The position numbers and the translations under genes were made by a program. Below are positions 3,638 to 50,452 of a DNA stretch of 64,000 nucleotides, one piece after another. The notes under the pieces are model-generated. The model was not told the DNA's origin. It did no database searches and was given only the letters and a program-made list of their open reading frames with translations. Numbering within the stretch: the first letter of the stretch is position 1; each line of letters opens with the position of its first letter. The DNA is taken from sequence record OQ845958.1; one strand, given 5' to 3'. Source of the DNA: Escherichia phage pEC-M719-6WT.2.

Positions 3638-3644
3638 TTCAAAA

Positions 3645-3673
3645 GGTCTGCCTTCGGGTGGACCTTTTTTTTT
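3645..3673 (+). terminator. rho-independent terminator
   Basis: GGTCTGCC-TTCG-GGTGGACC hairpin followed by a 9-T run. Confidence 0.65.
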
Positions 3674-3683
3674 CATTTAGGGG

Positions 3684-3713
3684 GTTTACATCCTCATAAA
3701 AAGGGTGTACTAT
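3684..3713 (+). promoter_or_regulatory. early promoter (GTTTACA -35, 17 nt, TACTAT -10) with conserved leader
   Basis: -35/-10 spacing of 17 nt; followed by conserved leader TATCCCATCAACTACTGAGGAG and ATG at 3742. Confidence 0.5.
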
Positions 3714-4716: not shown

Positions 4717-4932
4717 ATGTTGTATGACCCAAGTGGTAATTTTGAAAATGGTGTGATTGTTCTGGAGCCTGAGCATCCAATTGGTGACGTATACCGCCCA
4801 GTTGAAGTGTGCGAATGTAATTTTGTTGCAGGTAATACTGGTGGGATTTCCATTGAGCAAGATGATGATGTTATTTACCTGGATGCAAGCCAAGTAGAAG
4901 CGCTTTATAGTATTTTAAAACATAACCGTTGA
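4717..4932 (+). CDS. hypothetical protein
   Basis: 71 aa; ATG preceded by GAGGAA; track ORF 4642 appears to begin at a non-ATG codon. Confidence 0.4.
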   Translation: MLYDPSGNFENGVIVLEPEHPIGDVYRPVEVCECNFVAGNTGGISIEQDDDVIYLDASQVEALYSILKHNR

Positions 4933-4942
4933 GGAACAGAAA

Positions 4943-5503
4943 ATGATTATTGAAACAACTGAATTGTTTGGCGAACTGACTGCTGAAGTGGTTAATAACG
5001 CAATCGAGCTTTGTCAAGAAGACGATAAAATCGTACTGACTATCCAAGATATTAAACCACTTTATAATTTAATGGTTTTGGATAGAGCTGACTATCTCAA
5101 TGGACGTAATAGTGCTCCTGTCGATATTAACGATGAGCTATACGCTTATATCTATAAAAATGAAAATGGGTTTAATCTGGAAAATGGTATAGAATGCCTG
5201 AGCATTAGCGATTCTGATAAATTCTTTGATTGTATTTTCAAACTCTTCCAGGAAGAATGTAAACCGGAAGTTGAATGGAAAGTTCCGGGACAAGATGCAC
5301 TGATTCGCTCTAGTGAAACGTTTGAAGGCGATGAAGAGGAACTAGATTATAATACTGAATTAACTGTGCATCAACATAACGGCCGTGACCTGTTATCTAT
5401 TGTCCAAAGACATGACGGCGAAAGTGAAGTGGTATTTACTAAGGACGAGCTAAAAGTTTTAGTCTCTTATCTGAACTCTGTTATCCCAACTATGAACTCT
5501 TAA
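4943..5503 (+). CDS. acidic hypothetical protein
   Basis: 186 aa, strongly acidic; SD upstream. Confidence 0.5.
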   Translation: MIIETTELFGELTAEVVNNAIELCQEDDKIVLTIQDIKPLYNLMVLDRADYLNGRNSAPVDINDELYAYIYKNENGFNLENGIECLSISDSDKFFDCIFKLFQEECKPEVEWKVPGQDALIRSSETFEGDEEELDYNTELTVHQHNGRDLLSIVQRHDGESEVVFTKDELKVLVSYLNSVIPTMNS

Positions 5504-5514
5504 GGAAAATTATT

Positions 5515-5967
5515 ATGATTATCAATACAAACTCATGGCACGCTCGTTTCCACGACCGTTTTTATGACCGTCATTCTCGTCCACACTCTTTGTGTGCTTA
5601 TTTCTGGAAAATGGTTTGGGCTTGTTTTGTTTGTGCCGTTTTTATCGGTAGTATGGTTTTTGGATTAACTGTCGCGGGTGCAGGTGTATTAGAGCATTTC
5701 TTTGTATTAAGCACCCCGGTCGGTTTAGGCTTAGGGTTTATTTTAGGACTAGCTACACTGGCTCTTATTCTGACGGTAGCATTTGGTCTAATGTATGGTC
5801 TAATGAATTTATGGGCCTGGTACGATTTACGTAAAGAAGAAAAAGAATGGGAACGCATTAAAGCTAAACGTGAAGGAAAGGAAATTAAAGAAAATGTTTT
5901 CATTCAATATATCAAAGCTCGTAAATCTAAGATGTGCCCAGTAATCCACTTCGAGGACAAAGAATGA
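5515..5967 (+). CDS. integral membrane protein
   Basis: 150 aa; two to three hydrophobic helices, basic C-terminal tail. Confidence 0.5.
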   Translation: MIINTNSWHARFHDRFYDRHSRPHSLCAYFWKMVWACFVCAVFIGSMVFGLTVAGAGVLEHFFVLSTPVGLGLGFILGLATLALILTVAFGLMYGLMNLWAWYDLRKEEKEWERIKAKREGKEIKENVFIQYIKARKSKMCPVIHFEDKE

Positions 5968-6974
5968 AAACTATTATGAAAGGCTACTTCGGTAGCCACC
6001 TTTATGGAACAAGCACCCCAGAATCTGATGTTGATTTTAAAGAAATCTTTGTTCCTCATCCGCGAGATATCCTGCTCGGAACCGCGATGAATCATACAAA
6101 CCTGAACACGAATAACACGGCTACCAAAAACACAAAAGACGATATCGATCATGAATTATTCAGTCTGAAATATTTCTTTAAACTGGCTGCCGAAGGCGAA
6201 ACCGTTGCCCTGGATATGATTCACACCCCGGCTGACCTGGTAGTCAAATCCGATTTACCAGATGTATGGAAGTTTATTCAAGACAACCGTTCGCGGTTCT
6301 ATACAACTAACATGAAAGCCTATTTGGGGTACGTCCGTAAGCAAGCTTCCAAATATGGTGTTAAAGGTTCTCGATTGGCTGCACTGCGTGGTGTACTGAC
6401 AATTGTTAACCAGATTCCTGAACAGTGTGTCGATTATCAAGAAGATGGTTCTATTAAACAACGTCGAACTAAAGTAGAAGATATTAAGCACCGGCTCCCT
6501 GAAAACGAGTTCTGTGAATGGGTATTTCATAACCATGAGAAAACAGGTCCTCAAACGTTCTATACTGTTCTTGGACGTAAGTACCAAACCACCCTGTCTT
6601 TAATCGAGCTCAAGCAATCTCTGAATAAACTTGATGCCGAATATGGTGAACGTGCTCGTAAGGCTGAAGCCAATGAAGGTATTGACTGGAAAGCATTGAG
6701 TCATGCTTACCGAGCTGGATATCAGCTGAAGGAAATCTATCAAACTGGTGACCTGGTTTATCCACTTAAAAATGCTTCTATTATTAAAGCAATAAAAGCT
6801 GGTGATATGCCTTTCAAAGTAGTTCAAGGCCTGTTGGAAAATACTGTTGATGAAGTTGAAGTCCTGGCCATCCAGGCTGCTAAGAATGGTATGCCTGCGA
6901 AGGTGGACATGAAGTTCTGGGACAAGTTTGTTGAGGAGGTATATCTTGACAACCACAATTCCTATTATCGATAA
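5964..6974 (+). CDS. Pol-beta-superfamily nucleotidyltransferase-like protein
   Basis: 337 aa from ATG at 5964; N-terminal GS-x10-DVD pattern (GSHLYGTSTPESDVDF) characteristic of minimal nucleotidyltransferase fold; ATGA overlap with upstream gene. Confidence 0.5.
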   Translation: MKTIMKGYFGSHLYGTSTPESDVDFKEIFVPHPRDILLGTAMNHTNLNTNNTATKNTKDDIDHELFSLKYFFKLAAEGETVALDMIHTPADLVVKSDLPDVWKFIQDNRSRFYTTNMKAYLGYVRKQASKYGVKGSRLAALRGVLTIVNQIPEQCVDYQEDGSIKQRRTKVEDIKHRLPENEFCEWVFHNHEKTGPQTFYTVLGRKYQTTLSLIELKQSLNKLDAEYGERARKAEANEGIDWKALSHAYRAGYQLKEIYQTGDLVYPLKNASIIKAIKAGDMPFKVVQGLLENTVDEVEVLAIQAAKNGMPAKVDMKFWDKFVEEVYLDNHNSYYR

Positions 6975-7170
6975 CCAGGAAATCAAGGTCTTCTTATCGT
7001 ATGGAAGACCTAATAAAGGTCGGCGCTGGTATCTCGAAGCAGTCTGTCGGGAAACTGGCAGACGAATCAACAATAAGTACATATGCAAACCAACTCCCAA
7101 ACAAACTCGCAGGTTTGTTAACTGGGCTATCAATACTATAAGATTCCATAATTTTTGGAGTGCAATCTAA
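6946..7170 (+). CDS. hypothetical basic protein (possible TTG start)
   Basis: track ORF 6928-7170; TTG at 6946 lies 6 nt after a GAGGAGG SD; ends just before bidirectional terminator. Confidence 0.25.
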   Translation: MTTTIPIIDNQEIKVFLSYGRPNKGRRWYLEAVCRETGRRINNKYICKPTPKQTRRFVNWAINTIRFHNFWSAI

Positions 7171-7190
7171 GGGCCATCTGGCCCTTTTTT
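7171..7190. terminator. terminator hairpin between convergent genes
   Basis: GGGCCATCTGGCCC hairpin plus T6; lies between stop of + gene (7170) and stop of - gene (7193). Confidence 0.55.
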
Positions 7191-7192
7191 GT

Positions 7193-7939
7193 TTATGAAG
7201 TCACTGTTTGTTCGGCTACTAACAATGCAGAGGTTATTGTAAAGTTGCCGCCATTTGGCATAACAGTTATCGCTGTACCATTGGTTGCCATTGCCCCATC
7301 TTTATCAATGCTAAAGAACGTTGTAAAAGACAAAATATCTGTAGCATTTTCCGGACGATTTTGTATATAAGTGTTTCCGTTGGTTCCAACGAAATTTAAT
7401 GTTATACTTCGAGCTTGCGAGCTTCCTGTAAAATTACCAATAAGGTTGAGTTTAAATAATAGGCTTCTGTCTTGGTTATATGGCCACAACTTATCATCAG
7501 TGGTTCTAAAAAACGGAGATAGAGTCCCTGCTGTCGGCGGAATCCCCTTTAAAACACTAATTATGTTTGACGTCACACCATTAGTTAATAGAACGTTTAT
7601 ACCACTCCAAAACACCTCGGATTTTTCCCTCTTTCCTGCTGTATCAGTTAAAAAATCATCAACAGTTCCTGTATTTCCCAAGTCAAGCCATATCTGATAA
7701 GAAGACTTTCCATCCCCGCCTGGGTCTCCTTTTGGTCCTGGTACACCCGGTTCTCCTTTGGGACCAGGCGGACCCGGTATCTGAGTTTCCGAGCTGGACA
7801 TAGTTTGGAAAAAACGCTCTTTGCTATCTGTAGGAGTATTCGGCAACACCATAGTAGAACCAAACAAATACCAATTATTAGCCAAGGCAGCCTGGACTTT
7901 TTCATTGAGTTCATCAACAGTTCTTCCGGATAAAATCAT
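7193..7939 (-). CDS. collagen-like repeat protein with tail-fibre-like motif
   Basis: 248 aa on minus strand; strong SD (AAGGAGA) 7 nt before ATG; eight Gly-X-Y triplets (GPPGPKGEPGVPGPKGDPGGDG) followed by KSSYQIWLDLGNTGT, resembling the SAYEIW..GF.GT motif of phage fibre proteins. Confidence 0.6.
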   Translation of the reverse strand: MILSGRTVDELNEKVQAALANNWYLFGSTMVLPNTPTDSKERFFQTMSSSETQIPGPPGPKGEPGVPGPKGDPGGDGKSSYQIWLDLGNTGTVDDFLTDTAGKREKSEVFWSGINVLLTNGVTSNIISVLKGIPPTAGTLSPFFRTTDDKLWPYNQDRSLLFKLNLIGNFTGSSQARSITLNFVGTNGNTYIQNRPENATDILSFTTFFSIDKDGAMATNGTAITVMPNGGNFTITSALLVAEQTVTS

Positions 7940-7985
7940 AAACTTTCTCCTTTATGGTTTTATTAAGTATTTTTATTTAGTATAT

Positions 7986-8015
7986 GTGTACAACCAGATG
8001 GTCATGATGCATAAT
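7986..8015 (+). promoter_or_regulatory. early promoter (GTGTACA, 17 nt, CATAAT)
   Basis: followed by conserved leader GATTCCATACTGAGTTACCAAAT...GGAGAATAAAATG. Confidence 0.5.
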
Positions 8016-8056
8016 GATTCCATACTGAGTTACCAAATAAACAAACGGAGAATAAA

Positions 8057-46983: not shown

Positions 46984-47659
46984 TGCTATTATTGACTTTG
47001 AAACTCTGGGAAACGGCTCGAAGGGAGCCGTTATTGACCTGGCTCTGATTACATTCGAATCTGACCCTGCTATTGTGGAATCATTCGAAACCCTGGTTAA
47101 TCGCGGCAAACGTATCAAGTTTAGCCTTGAATACCAAAAAGGTAAGCGTCTGTTCGATACAACAACCATGGGTTGGTGGAAAAAGCAATCAGCAGAAGCC
47201 CGTGTTAACTTGGCTCCTTCTGCGCAAGATGTTGATACTCTGACCGGTATCCAACAGGCAATTGATTATCTGAATGGTAATGGAATTAACAAATACGAAA
47301 GCCTTATGTGGTGTCGTGGAATGTCTTTTGACTTCCCGTTGTTTGTTGACCTTATCCGTGACCTACAGCGCAATGAGGGTATTCCCGAGCGTGAATTGAA
47401 TACCTATGGCCTGGAGCCAGTTGTATTCTGGAACCAGCGAGATATCAGGACAGCAATCGAAGCCCTATCACTCGTCCGTAAGATGTGTGAAACTCCATTA
47501 CCAAAGGGGACTTTAGATGGATTTGTGGCGCATGATTCGGTGCATGACTGCGCGAAAGATATTTTGATGCTTAAGTATGCCCAGCGCTATGCTCTTGGTT
47601 TGGATGAAGTTCCTTCCGAAGAAGATGCAGACCCGTTATCTTTACCGAAAAAACGATAA
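46976..47659 (+). CDS. dexA: exonuclease A (DEDDh 3-prime to 5-prime exonuclease)
   Basis: 227 aa (same as T4 DexA); DFETLG Exo I motif and HDSVHDCAKD Exo III motif. Confidence 0.85.
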   Translation: MIDAIIDFETLGNGSKGAVIDLALITFESDPAIVESFETLVNRGKRIKFSLEYQKGKRLFDTTTMGWWKKQSAEARVNLAPSAQDVDTLTGIQQAIDYLNGNGINKYESLMWCRGMSFDFPLFVDLIRDLQRNEGIPERELNTYGLEPVVFWNQRDIRTAIEALSLVRKMCETPLPKGTLDGFVAHDSVHDCAKDILMLKYAQRYALGLDEVPSEEDADPLSLPKKR

Positions 47660-47665
47660 AAAGTA

Positions 47666-47695
47666 GTGTACAAGGCCAATGGAAAGAGACATAAT
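47666..47695 (+). promoter_or_regulatory. early promoter (GTGTACA, 17 nt, CATAAT)
   Basis: followed by conserved leader CATCTCATCAACTACTGATGAGG. Confidence 0.5.
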
Positions 47696-47726
47696 CATCT
47701 CATCAACTACTGATGAGGATAACAAA

Positions 47727-47984
47727 ATGATTACTTCTTTTGAAATTGGCCAACAATATGAAATGTCTGCTCTTCAAGCTGCTGAAGCAGGTCTGACTGA
47801 AGCGTTTGAATGTGCATTTACAAATATTCGTGGTAAAATCTTTACTGTCAATAAAATTGCGGTATATGATAAAGAAACAGACATGAACAAAGGCATCTAC
47901 TTGAACGTGTCAAACGCAAAAGGCCGTCGTGAAATTATGGTTGTACAACCTAACCAACTGGCGATGTTCAATAAGGTTACATAA
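47727..47984 (+). CDS. hypothetical protein
   Basis: 85 aa from ATG 47727. Confidence 0.4.
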   Translation: MITSFEIGQQYEMSALQAAEAGLTEAFECAFTNIRGKIFTVNKIAVYDKETDMNKGIYLNVSNAKGRREIMVVQPNQLAMFNKVT

Positions 47985-48736
47985 TGAAACCAGAATTTAT
48001 TGACTTTGATGTTGTAAGCATGTATGTTCGCCCAATTAAACCATTAAAACTTGAGAAACAAAATATGACTATTGAAATTAACAAAACTTATCAACTGATT
48101 GAACCTATTATTCAAAACGCAGCTATGGTTTCTGGGTATAATACTCTGACTGATGCTTTAGGCGAAGGTGAATTTATTGTTGAAACTTTTGTAAAAAGTA
48201 ACTGGTTTGATAAAGCATATATTTTGCATGCACGTCGCCTTGATACAAATGAAGTAGAAAAAATTATGGTTTATGAAGCTGAGATTGAACTCTTCAAAGA
48301 AGTTGAAGAAACTCCTATCAAAGTTGACAAAACCTATCAACTTGTTGGATATGGTGATTTTGATAATACTAATGCATTGAATGCCGGTTGGCGCGTACTG
48401 AAAGGTATTTTTGGATTTGCTCCATTTACCGTTAAAACAGTTAAGTACCACAATCACCAAAGCATCTTTGAATTTACTGCGGTCAATGAATCAGGTGACA
48501 ATCTTGAAGCCATCCTTTATCCGCGTGAATCTGTACTGCTGGAAGAAGTTAGCGAACTGGGTGACCCTATTGACTTGTTATGCAAACCAGTTCAAATCAA
48601 ACGCCCATTTAACAGTTCCATTTGTGGTTGGGTAACAGACCAGTGGATTGAAGATGGTGTTGAACTCCTGAACGTTGTCCATGCTGGTGAATTTACTGTT
48701 GTACCACGTTCTATGGTTGTTGAAATTTTTAATTAA
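47984..48736 (+). CDS. hypothetical protein with internal repeat and conserved C-terminal domain
   Basis: 250 aa; C-terminal 40 aa homologous to the next gene. Confidence 0.5.
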   Translation: MKPEFIDFDVVSMYVRPIKPLKLEKQNMTIEINKTYQLIEPIIQNAAMVSGYNTLTDALGEGEFIVETFVKSNWFDKAYILHARRLDTNEVEKIMVYEAEIELFKEVEETPIKVDKTYQLVGYGDFDNTNALNAGWRVLKGIFGFAPFTVKTVKYHNHQSIFEFTAVNESGDNLEAILYPRESVLLEEVSELGDPIDLLCKPVQIKRPFNSSICGWVTDQWIEDGVELLNVVHAGEFTVVPRSMVVEIFN

Positions 48737-48743
48737 ATTTAAA

Positions 48744-48779
48744 GTGTACAAACTCTTGGGGTCAGAGTATAATGACCCC
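48744..48779 (+). promoter_or_regulatory. early promoter with -10 inside palindrome (44-bp exact copy of 59953-59996)
   Basis: GTGTACA, 17 nt, TATAAT; GGGGTCA/TGACCCC arms flank the -10. Confidence 0.5.
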
Positions 48780-48815
48780 ACTGGAGAATAAACTTATTAA
48801 CCAAGAGAGAAAATT

Positions 48816-49370
48816 ATGAAAGTTGAAGCTGGTGATATTGTACGTGTTTCTAAAGAATCTCGTTCTAAAGCTGCTGGTCGTTTTGTTGAGGTTGCGGGTC
48901 TTCGCACTAATTTAGTAGGTGGAATTAAAGAAGTTAAAGTGCGTATCATTCCTAAAAATGGTCAGACTGAAACTCAATTGGCTTATGTGCATCCTAAATT
49001 CCTGGAATCAACCGAATTTACTGGATATATCGCTCCTGTGTCTGAGGAAGTTGAATCCCATGATGGATATGTGTGCGAAAGCAATGATATCCGTGGTGTA
49101 ATTGCTCAAGACGTTGAAACCATTGACCAGTCTCATGTTGGGGTTGATTTTAAATGGAAATTGGGCAAAGGTGTCTTTTTTGTTTCACCTAAACCGTTTG
49201 AATACAATTGCATGTACGGTCCGACTTATGAAACCACTAGCATGTCTGGTTACATCACAGACCAGTGGGTTGAAGAAGGTGTCAAACTGTATAATATCGT
49301 ATTCCTTGGAACCTTTAAGGTTGTTCCTGAGAGCTTTATCGTTGAGTATGCCGATATTCATTTTGCCTAA
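48816..49370 (+). CDS. hypothetical protein, paralog of 47984-48736 C-terminal domain
   Basis: 184 aa; ...SGYITDQWVEEGVKLYNIVFLGTFKVVPESFIVE. Confidence 0.5.
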   Translation: MKVEAGDIVRVSKESRSKAAGRFVEVAGLRTNLVGGIKEVKVRIIPKNGQTETQLAYVHPKFLESTEFTGYIAPVSEEVESHDGYVCESNDIRGVIAQDVETIDQSHVGVDFKWKLGKGVFFVSPKPFEYNCMYGPTYETTSMSGYITDQWVEEGVKLYNIVFLGTFKVVPESFIVEYADIHFA

Positions 49371-49418
49371 ATTATAAAAATGATAGGGTAATTTTGCCCT
49401 ATCAATGAGGAGAATATT

Positions 49419-49643
49419 ATGTTTAATGAAGATTGTGTGACCACTTCCCTGACTGCTGAAGAGTTTTGGGACACTGCCGAAAGTGATAAAGTGATTGTGA
49501 AGAAAAACATCAATGAATTTCTTTGCACCACTGATATCATTTATGTGTATGCAGACAAAGACGCAGAACTACCTAGCTATGCGCTGTTCCGCGAAGAATC
49601 AGAAGATGGTACAGATTTTTGGAAGGAGATTTATAATGTCTAA
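49419..49643 (+). CDS. acidic hypothetical protein
   Basis: 74 aa. Confidence 0.4.
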   Translation: MFNEDCVTTSLTAEEFWDTAESDKVIVKKNINEFLCTTDIIYVYADKDAELPSYALFREESEDGTDFWKEIYNV

Positions 49644-50007
49644 ATTTGAAACTGATAAGTGGTATTATTTTAAAGATAATGTTGCTGAAAGCAGATTCCG
49701 TTTGTTATGCACAGATAATGATAATATAGCCAATGCTATAATCAATGGCGAGGGATTTAGACCAGTCAGAATTGAAGATGGTGATGTGTATAAAATGGAA
49801 TTATCAACTGGTGAATTTGTGAGCCTATTCATAAAGGAAGACGAATTCCGTTTCTTTGAAGAAGAAAAAGATGACGATACTGAAGATGAATGCGAAGACG
49901 CAGCTCCATCTGAGCCAAGCGAATTCCCTTTGACTAAAATCACCATCTCTAATAACTCCGAAGCCTGGACCGTTTACCAGATGTTGAAAGCACACTTTAA
50001 GGAATAA
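49636..50007 (+). CDS. acidic hypothetical protein
   Basis: 123 aa from ATG 49636 (SD GGAGAT); D/E-rich C-terminal half. Confidence 0.4.
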   Translation: MSKFETDKWYYFKDNVAESRFRLLCTDNDNIANAIINGEGFRPVRIEDGDVYKMELSTGEFVSLFIKEDEFRFFEEEKDDDTEDECEDAAPSEPSEFPLTKITISNNSEAWTVYQMLKAHFKE

Positions 50008-50008
50008 C

Positions 50009-50185
50009 ATGCCACTTTATGATTACAAATGTCAATCCAATGACTGCGCGAAAGAATACGAAAAAATCAAGAAAATCTCTGAAAGAGATAATGATGTTTG
50101 TCCTGATTGCCATCGGCTGGCTGTTCGGTTAGTCTCGGCCCCTAAACATGTTAATGGCGGTTTTTACGACCTGCTGACTAAGTGA
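50009..50185 (+). CDS. FmdB-type zinc-ribbon protein (58 aa)
   Basis: hand-translated MPLYDYKCQSNDCAKEYE...CPDCHRL: N-terminal YxCxxC plus second CxxC as in FmdB-family regulators; below the track size cutoff. Confidence 0.45.
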   Translation: MPLYDYKCQSNDCAKEYEKIKKISERDNDVCPDCHRLAVRLVSAPKHVNGGFYDLLTK

Positions 50186-50191
50186 GAAATT

Positions 50192-50452
50192 ATGAAATAC
50201 ATTAATCGTTCTATTGCAGCGCTGGTGCTGGCGGTTTCATTAGCTGGTTGTACTGATGCAGATAACGCCATTCGTGTATTAGATGCAAACGGCTATGAGC
50301 AAATCCAAATCACCGGATATAATTGGTTCTCTTGTGGTAAAGATGATTTCCAACACACAGGCTTTACGGCCGTGGGTCCAACTGGTAAGAAAGTTGAAGG
50401 AACTGTTTGTTCTGGTTTGTTGTTCAAGAATTCAACCATCCGATTTGAATGA
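50192..50452 (+). CDS. lipoprotein
   Basis: 86 aa; signal peptide with lipobox LAGC. Confidence 0.5.
   Translation: MKYINRSIAALVLAVSLAGCTDADNAIRVLDANGYEQIQITGYNWFSCGKDDFQHTGFTAVGPTGKKVEGTVCSGLLFKNSTIRFE

Follow-up and report, generated by a model that had tools for sequence, protein, structure and literature searches.

The 64,000-nucleotide (nt) stretch of Escherichia phage pEC-M719-6WT.2 analyzed here (sequence record OQ845958.1; the whole stretch is referred to below as the window) carries, at positions 5964 to 6974, a gene whose product bears the minimal signature of a Pol-beta-type nucleotidyltransferase (NTase), and the question raised by this locus is to which NTase family the protein belongs and what such an enzyme would do for the phage. 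We conclude that the window protein is almost certainly an RlaP-family NTase and the ortholog of T4 NrdC.11, and we consider it fairly probable that NrdC.11 adds nucleotides to RNA 3′ ends.

Assignment to the RlaP family and orthology to nrdC.11

The gene and the elements that define it are as follows.

5964..6974, plus strand: coding sequence of the T4 nrdC.11 ortholog, ATG at 5964 and TAA at 6972-6974
5991..6035, plus strand: Pol-beta signature G10-S11, 10 residues, D22-V23-D24 (sequence, alignment, and pattern scan)
5953..5957, plus strand: Shine-Dalgarno-like GAGGA, 6 nt 5′ of the ATG and within the end of the upstream open reading frame (ORF), as read from the sequence

The original prediction of a Pol-beta-type NTase fold proved correct, and it gained independent support from a match to the Pfam family RlaP (PF10127) at E = 1.3e-11, with a score of 45.2 bits versus a gathering cutoff of 23, across amino acids 6 to 133. 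This alignment spans profile positions 23 to 141 of 249 only. PF10127 is likewise matched by 144 of 145 diverse relatives (E <= 0.001), and the PHROGs database returned phrog_388, “nucleotidyltransferase,” at E = 1e-129. Homologs are abundant: after clustering at 50% identity, 3067 representatives match at E <= 1e-3, 805 still do so at E <= 1e-30, and the 150 top-ranking ones are mostly aligned across near-full length. The name RlaP, which stands for RNA ligase-associating Pol-beta, was given to PF10127 by Burroughs and Aravind, according to the papers that cite them (PMC12776372, PMC7824862).

The window is 99.7% identical at the nt level to Escherichia phage ECML-359 (Straboviridae, Tevenvirinae, Gaprivervirus) and matches 434 phage records by megablast. 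In Shigella phage SP18, the ortholog, with 89% nt identity to the window gene, is annotated nrdC.11 and resides in the gene order tk, mobD, nrdC.11, nrdC.9, nrdC.8, nrdC. The earlier placement of the gene in the hyperplastic region was thus right, as the gene sits among the tk-mobD-nrdC genes of a T4-like phage. At the protein level, identity is 100% to GenBank entry WMU95809.1 and 82% to a T2-type cluster of 751 members. The prediction that nrdC.11 (COG3541) encodes an NTase goes back to 2006 (PMC1524935), and T4 NrdC.11 has since been assigned to PF10127, in sequence-network cluster 5 (PMC12776372); no functional study of nrdC.11 was found in the literature searched.

Database names for this protein are inconsistent. 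Orthologs are often designated “thioredoxin” in GenBank and UniRef, the identical WMU95809.1 among them, while others are correctly designated “nucleotidyltransferase,” and single entries carry the names “HNH homing endonuclease” and “ArsR family regulator.” The thioredoxin, endonuclease, and regulator names are probably mis-annotations that spread from the nrdC.x gene name or from neighboring genes. In the ECML-359 record (OL631482.1), a stretch of approximately 3 kb (47313-50436, locus L168, corresponding to about positions 4900-8050 of the window) is unannotated and holds a mobD.1-like gene, a membrane-protein gene, nrdC.11, and a collagen-like ORF.

The N-terminus of the NTase protein reads MKTIMKGYFGSHLYGTSTPESDVDF, within which the signature stretch is MKGYFGSHLYGTSTPESDVDF. 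The GS...DxD motif that had first drawn attention to the gene is present and is retained in a proper alignment of 145 sequences, 33 to 53% identical to the window protein, in which G10, S21, D22, and D24 never vary and S11 is kept in at least 90%. In its loose form, G[GS]x9-13Dx[DE], this motif is weak evidence when taken alone, because it occurs five times among the 126 reading frames in the window that reach 100 amino acids; the strict signature with hydrophobic flanks has its sole occurrence, across the same frames, in the ORF at 5964..6974. The NTase call is solid because profile searches and residue conservation back the motif.

Position 5964 is the best start codon, being preferred on account of the GAGGA located 6 nt upstream and of residues M1 and T3, which are invariant in all 36 of the 36 T4-like orthologs, and because distant homologs start at the same position. 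The figure of 337 amino acids given originally is correct as a count of codons including the stop, the protein itself being 336 amino acids long.

NTase families that were considered and set aside

Several NTase families had been named as candidates in the original prediction, among which the RNA-tailing option came closest, by way of RlaP, whereas the CD-NTase, MNT, OAS, and CCA/tRNA-NTase options were left unsupported by profile searches. The hidden Markov model (HMM) search that had been suggested for the CD-NTase, MNT, OAS, and CCA-type families was performed and returned none of them above threshold, with RlaP being found instead. With regard to CD-NTase, CBASS, and other defense NTases, no family of PADLOC-DB was matched even at E <= 10; SMODS and OAS gave no Pfam match at E <= 1, and a Pycsar reading was rejected on profile searches. 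The Pfam family NTP_transf_2 reached 14.5 bits versus a cutoff of 21.

Predicted three-part architecture

An AlphaFold2 (AF2) model was built from 138 sequences, including 120 distant homologs gathered by profile search, and attained a predicted local distance difference test score (pLDDT) of 89.8 and a predicted template modeling score of 0.76; when only 36 close orthologs (66 to 97% identity) were supplied, pLDDT was below 50 for amino acids 1 to 66. The model confidently predicts a fold composed of three parts.

5964..6368, plus strand: N-terminal Pol-beta NTase domain, amino acids 1 to about 135 (Pfam match at amino acids 6-133, AF2, and conservation)
6411..6593, plus strand: predicted beta-rich middle module, amino acids 150 to about 210 (AF2: five strands and one short helix)
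6600..6968, plus strand: predicted C-terminal helical bundle, HEPN/KNTase_C-like, amino acids 213-335 (AF2 and conservation)

The modeled NTase domain is of the alpha/beta type and contains strands E2-8, E23-30, E44-48, and E61-67, with pLDDT mostly above 90. Strands E154-158, E164-168, E184-191, E195-202, and E205-208 form the middle module, within which (amino acids 150 to 210) no Pfam match was obtained for either the window protein or bacterial clade members. The beta-rich module is kept across the NrdC.11-like clade, bacteria included, the bacterial homologs being collinear over their full length, and it may perhaps serve in RNA binding. The C-terminal part is modeled as helices H213-235, H242-261, H271-278, H284-307, and H316-335, the last of which is long and confidently predicted, and is most readily interpreted as a bundle of the HEPN/KNTase_C-like, substrate-binding type. 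The 250 amino acids that had been regarded as unassignable are accordingly resolved by the model in part, into the tail of the NTase domain and a putative HEPN/KNTase_C-like bundle, the beta-rich module alone being left without a family.

Residue conservation was assessed in alignments of 145 and 138 sequences, with the members of profile A2 being 33 to 53% identical to the query. The N-terminal residues that are at least 90% conserved comprise G10, S11, S21, D22, D24, N56, D60, D62, D84, Y123, Q127, Y131, and G135, while R230, D241, W242, K243, H247, R250, P267, K278, and G280 reach the same level in the C-terminal part, where all of those named except W242 are invariant. The third metal-binding carboxylate is predicted to be D62 or D84.

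Neither the single protein nor profiles A1 and A2 retrieved a meaningful match among Protein Data Bank (PDB) sequences. A hit of SAMTOR (7vkk) to amino acids 213-275, with a best E value of 0.0079 (profile A1) and 0.36 (A2), looks like chance. At the level of the model, the matches comprised HalB of the Hailong system (score 8.9 over 130 amino acids of the NTase core), the NTase-like protein 3c18 of the Joint Center for Structural Genomics (8.0 over 123 amino acids), several HEPN-domain proteins (6 to 7.4 over about 90 amino acids), and lincosamide and kanamycin nucleotidyltransferases (6.5 to 6.7 over 109 to 132 amino acids). The same overall fold is found in BFVD among many phage and giant-virus “nucleotidyltransferases.”

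The pairing of an NTase domain with a HEPN-like bundle invites a reading in which the protein, in the manner of MNT or KNTase enzymes, AMPylates a protein or metabolite and so neutralizes a toxin or a defense system. We regard such nucleotidylylation as improbable, since an NTase followed by a helical domain is generic to many Pol-beta NTases, RlaP included, and since the family assigned at the sequence level is RlaP and not MNT or ANT; the NCBIfam model of MntA matched 18 residues and reached 13.7 bits versus a cutoff of 60. Furthermore, the Pseudomonas RlaPs left E. coli proteins unlabeled (PMC12776372).

Gene neighborhoods of the relatives

The genomic context of relatives bears on function. 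Eighty bacterial and archaeal loci with full-length relatives (31 to 50% identity) were compared by clustering the neighboring ORFs and annotating the cluster representatives with Pfam. An RNA-repair gene (RtcB, Pnkp, Hen1, or Ro60) was present within 6 kb at 17 of the 80 loci, with RtcB occurring at 11, the kinase-phosphatase-ligase Pnkp at 7, Hen1 at 7, and Ro60/TROVE at 6. At five loci, Pnkp immediately precedes RlaP in the same orientation, 0 to 34 nt separating the two genes, and the order Hen1-Pnkp-RlaP is complete in four of these (L052, L054, L070, and L075, from Asticcacaulis and a chlamydial metagenome-assembled genome), the fifth (L058) being a short contig in which only Pnkp-RlaP is visible. 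By rough reasoning, well under one such Pnkp-RlaP locus would be expected by chance. A Nitrosospira locus (L032) combines, on a single strand, Ro60, RtcB, RlaP, Hen1, and Pnkp; L036 is listed alongside it with the bacterial Hen1-Pnkp-RlaP arrays.

Among phages that are not T4-like, a second association was apparent, with a gene for an HD-domain protein of 130 to 185 amino acids adjoining the NTase gene at 10 of 26 loci and the HD start overlapping the NTase stop in 8 of these 10. Both orders occur on such contigs.

RlaP then HD: L004 8001-9325; L005 8001-9439; L150, L155, L157, L160, L162, and L165
HD then RlaP: L166

The HD protein carries the motifs HHPEGDV...H and LHDVGK, and the only named proteins that it resembles, all at sub-threshold scores, are CCA addition/repair enzymes (in their HD region) and proteins of the PhnZ type. 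No published account of this two-gene NTase-HD phage module was found in the literature searched. Since RlaP cannot use 3′-phosphate ends, an HD phosphohydrolase would fit an end-healing step. In the 64-kb window, no HD homolog was detected (best tblastn E = 0.12), and no tRNA genes are present.

Proposed role in RNA repair

The biochemistry of the family is known from two Pseudomonas RlaPs, which are encoded between rtcB and rtcA and were characterized in a December 2025 preprint (PMC12776372). These enzymes add one or two nucleoside monophosphates (NMPs), or the corresponding deoxynucleotides, to RNA 3′-OH ends only, are inactive on DNA, protein, and 3′-phosphate ends, prefer Mn2+, favor the 5′ half of a cleaved-tRNA mimic, and partly recover the aminoacylation of a tRNA lacking one nucleotide (PMC12776372). 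The crystal structure of PfRlaP displays an N-terminal NTase domain and a C-terminal helical domain, the final helix of which is docked back on the NTase domain, while RtcB is described as requiring a 3′-phosphate end (PMC12776372). In a survey of jumbo phages, RlaP, which co-occurs with RNA ligases, was predicted to replace nucleotides removed by RloC-type nucleases prior to ligation (PMC7824862).

We lean, on balance, toward a role in which NrdC.11 restores nucleotides that cleaved tRNA has lost, acting after Pnkp has healed the ends and before Rnl1 seals them. In such a sequence of events, a host anticodon nuclease would cut the tRNA and, in some cases such as that of RloC, excise a nucleotide as well. 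The phage Pnkp, specified by pseT, would then convert the 2′,3′-cyclic or 3′-phosphate end to a 3′-OH and phosphorylate the 5′ end. The NrdC.11-type enzyme would next add one or two NMPs to the 3′-OH without a template, by means of two divalent metals (probably Mn2+) held by D22, D24, and either D62 or D84, and Rnl1 would finally seal the break, bringing a fraction of the tRNA back to full length. Rnl1 fits as the sealing step because it needs a 3′-OH and a 5′-phosphate, as NrdC.11 would leave. Both pseT (Pnkp) and rnlA are encoded by SP18.

A counter-defense role is plausible, albeit via RNA repair and not via nucleotide signaling. That NrdC.11 specifically counters nucleotide-excising anticodon nucleases is put forward as a tentative proposal, and it is somewhat more speculative that it represents the missing third enzyme of T4 tRNA repair, which would restore the RloC-excised nucleotide in a scheme of “heal, fill, seal.” If this were true, the phage NTase-HD modules and the bacterial Hen1-Pnkp-RlaP operons would follow the same three steps in variant forms. 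Viable T4 mutants with reduced genomes have included a spontaneous deletion of nrdC.11-mobD.3 (PMC9825161); as such deletion mutants are viable, nrdC.11 is accessory and should matter only on nuclease-carrying hosts.

The conserved neighbors described above also bear on a different use of the same chemistry, namely, general RNA 3′-end tailing or tRNA CCA-end repair, in which the enzyme would act on intact or trimmed 3′ ends, for example, to rebuild CCA or to mark host RNA. Such a function would accord with the labeling of rRNA-, tRNA-, and fragment-sized RNAs by RlaPs in total E. coli RNA and with their acceptance of any nucleoside triphosphate (PMC12776372). Its CCA variant finds a hint in the phage HD partner, which shows a weak, local resemblance to the HD region of the multifunctional CCA addition/repair protein (NF008137; E = 7.6e-8, with a score well short of the cutoff). 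We nonetheless consider it unlikely, as the conserved neighbors are break-repair enzymes (Pnkp, Hen1, and RtcB) and not tRNA-maturation genes, and as no CCA-adding or poly(A)-polymerase family was encountered among the Pfam (E <= 1) or NCBIfam matches. Some T4 tRNAs rely on the host CCA-adding enzyme, and for that reason T4 would not be expected to supply this activity. In addition, when given a cleaved tRNA, the Pseudomonas RlaPs acted preferentially on the 5′ half and less on the end bearing the 3′ terminus (PMC12776372).

Several points weigh against a nucleotide-filling role for NrdC.11 in tRNA repair. RlaP activity has been shown biochemically for PfRlaP and PaRlaP only and for no phage RlaP, T4 NrdC.11 is labeled as being of “unknown function,” the in vivo role of even the Pseudomonas RlaPs is a proposed one, and, as is discussed in the same preprint, untemplated addition would mostly put in the wrong nucleotide (PMC12776372). 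Furthermore, nrdC.11 is not adjacent to a ligase or kinase gene in this phage lineage, pseT and rnlA of SP18 being approximately 88 kb away and no ligase gene being annotated within 12 kb of SP18 nrdC.11. The Pfam model, moreover, reaches the N-terminal half only, in the window protein as in the bacterial members of the clade, which marks the clade as a divergent branch of RlaP, whose C-terminal 200 amino acids would include a beta-rich module without known counterpart.

The upstream membrane-protein gene and flanking features

The genes and putative signals surrounding nrdC.11 in the window are as follows.

5515..5967, plus strand: membrane-protein gene of 150 amino acids (phrog_944, “membrane protein”), an ORF whose stop overlaps the NTase start (ATGA)
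4943-5503, plus strand: y05I/MobD.1-like putative transcription factor gene, two genes upstream (PF24449 and PF24448, E = 1e-36 and 1e-19)
3641-3668, plus strand: strong terminator-like hairpin, 12-bp stem followed by a T-run (consensus scan)
3685-3713, plus strand: promoter-like TTTACA, 17 nt, TACTAT, immediately after the preceding hairpin (consensus scan)
7169..7186, plus strand: terminator-like GC-rich hairpin and T-run between the NTase gene and the collagen-like ORF (consensus scan only)
7193-7939, minus strand: collagen-like ORF of 248 amino acids, convergent with nrdC.11, with the Gly-X-Y run GPPGPKGEPGVPGPKGDPGGDG

The translational coupling to an upstream membrane protein that had been proposed from the sequence is borne out by the ATGA overlap, and the RefSeq annotation of phage vB_EcoM_RZ contains the same 4-nt overlap. 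The membrane protein itself contains an extended run of hydrophobic residues, suggestive of several membrane spans, and received no assignment in Pfam, NCBIfam, or PADLOC. A homolog of its gene occurs no more than 2.5 kb upstream of nrdC.11 at 45 of 83 viral loci and abuts it at 13 of the 83, with small ORFs often in between, and no membrane-protein gene recurs among the neighbors at the 80 bacterial loci. Because the coupling is not conserved in the clade of the enzyme, it says little about function, and the membrane-protein gene is probably a neighbor and not an obligate partner. No HEPN-family neighbor was matched among the two upstream genes, which encode the membrane protein and the y05I-like protein.

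This gene pair, together with the match of the model to HalB, prompts consideration of a signaling NTase akin to that of Hailong, a system whose two genes, for a transmembrane protein and an NTase, form an operon (PMC13434031). In such a reading, the two window proteins would resemble HalA/HalB, and an oligodeoxyadenylate or cyclic nucleotide would gate the membrane protein or act as a defense decoy. This appears very improbable. Identity to HalB is 14%, the match is limited to the generic NTase core, and HalB is missed by profile searches of PDB sequences, while the membrane protein lacks a significant match in the PDB or NCBIfam and PADLOC (a 2023 library that may not contain Hailong models) returned none for either protein at E <= 10. 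The pairing is, moreover, confined to T4-like phages, where it is often interrupted, whereas elsewhere in the clade the linkage is to RNA-repair and HD genes.

With respect to transcription, the hairpin at 7169-7186 likely ends the transcription unit, and the hairpin at 3641-3668 together with the promoter-like site at 3685-3713 may mark its start. Sigma-70-like promoter matches in the window occur at the level of chance (17 versus 17.0 expected from shuffled sequence) and are uninformative as to the original designation of the NTase gene as early. Relatives of the collagen-like ORF are annotated “tail needle knob” or “tail-NK domain,” and its homologs were found near nrdC.11 at only 4 of the 83 viral loci. 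As SP18 possesses no such gene at this position, the ORF looks inserted in the hyperplastic region.

What the analysis adds

The literature already covers the gene, its fold class, its family, and its likely role, and because the gene and family are on record and a 2025 preprint points at T4 NrdC.11, the present work adds context and not discovery. This context consists of the clade-specific operon links to Hen1-Pnkp and RtcB/Ro60, the NTase-HD module in other phages, the predicted three-part structure with its beta-rich module, and the recognition that “thioredoxin” mis-annotation is widespread. The T4 Pnkp/Rnl1 pathway is the textbook case of viral repair of tRNA cut by a host suicide nuclease. 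Hosts have responded with nucleases that also excise a nucleotide and should thereby defeat simple religation. For the phage's next move, the obvious candidate is an enzyme that adds nucleotides and is conserved among T4-like phages.

Comparison with known systems

HalB (PDB 9dbh), which synthesizes oligodeoxyadenylate, is comparable to the window protein in that both NTase genes are paired with a membrane-protein gene. A relationship between the two NTases is not detectable at the sequence level, however, and HalB, at approximately 217 amino acids, possesses neither the beta-rich module nor the long helical bundle predicted for the window protein; the membrane partner in the window, in turn, displays no similarity to any solved protein. 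Kanamycin nucleotidyltransferase and the NTases of MNT-HEPN type differ in that the window protein is not a member of their HMM families, in the C-terminal motif, which is D-W-K...S-H-A-x-R here as opposed to the HEPN motif Rx4-6H, and in substrate, that known for the RlaP family being RNA.

The Pseudomonas RlaPs share with the window protein the Pfam family, the catalytic motif, the order of an N-terminal NTase domain and a C-terminal helical domain (predicted by AF2 for the window protein), and, for its relatives, the adjacency to RtcB or Pnkp/Hen1. They differ in belonging to network cluster 1a, whereas the window protein belongs to cluster 5 (PMC12776372), and in that the window protein aligns to the Pfam model over amino acids 6 to 133 only, is predicted to contain the unassigned beta-rich module of about 60 amino acids, and is encoded in a phage in which no ligase operon surrounds the gene.

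The closest counterpart is T4 NrdC.11 (COG3541/PF10127), with which the window protein shares its length and its position in the genome (mobD ... nrdC.11 ... nrdC.9, nrdC.8). The window locus is set apart from the T4 arrangement by the membrane-protein gene that abuts the start of nrdC.11 and by the opposite-strand collagen-like gene that follows it, where SP18 carries small ORFs.

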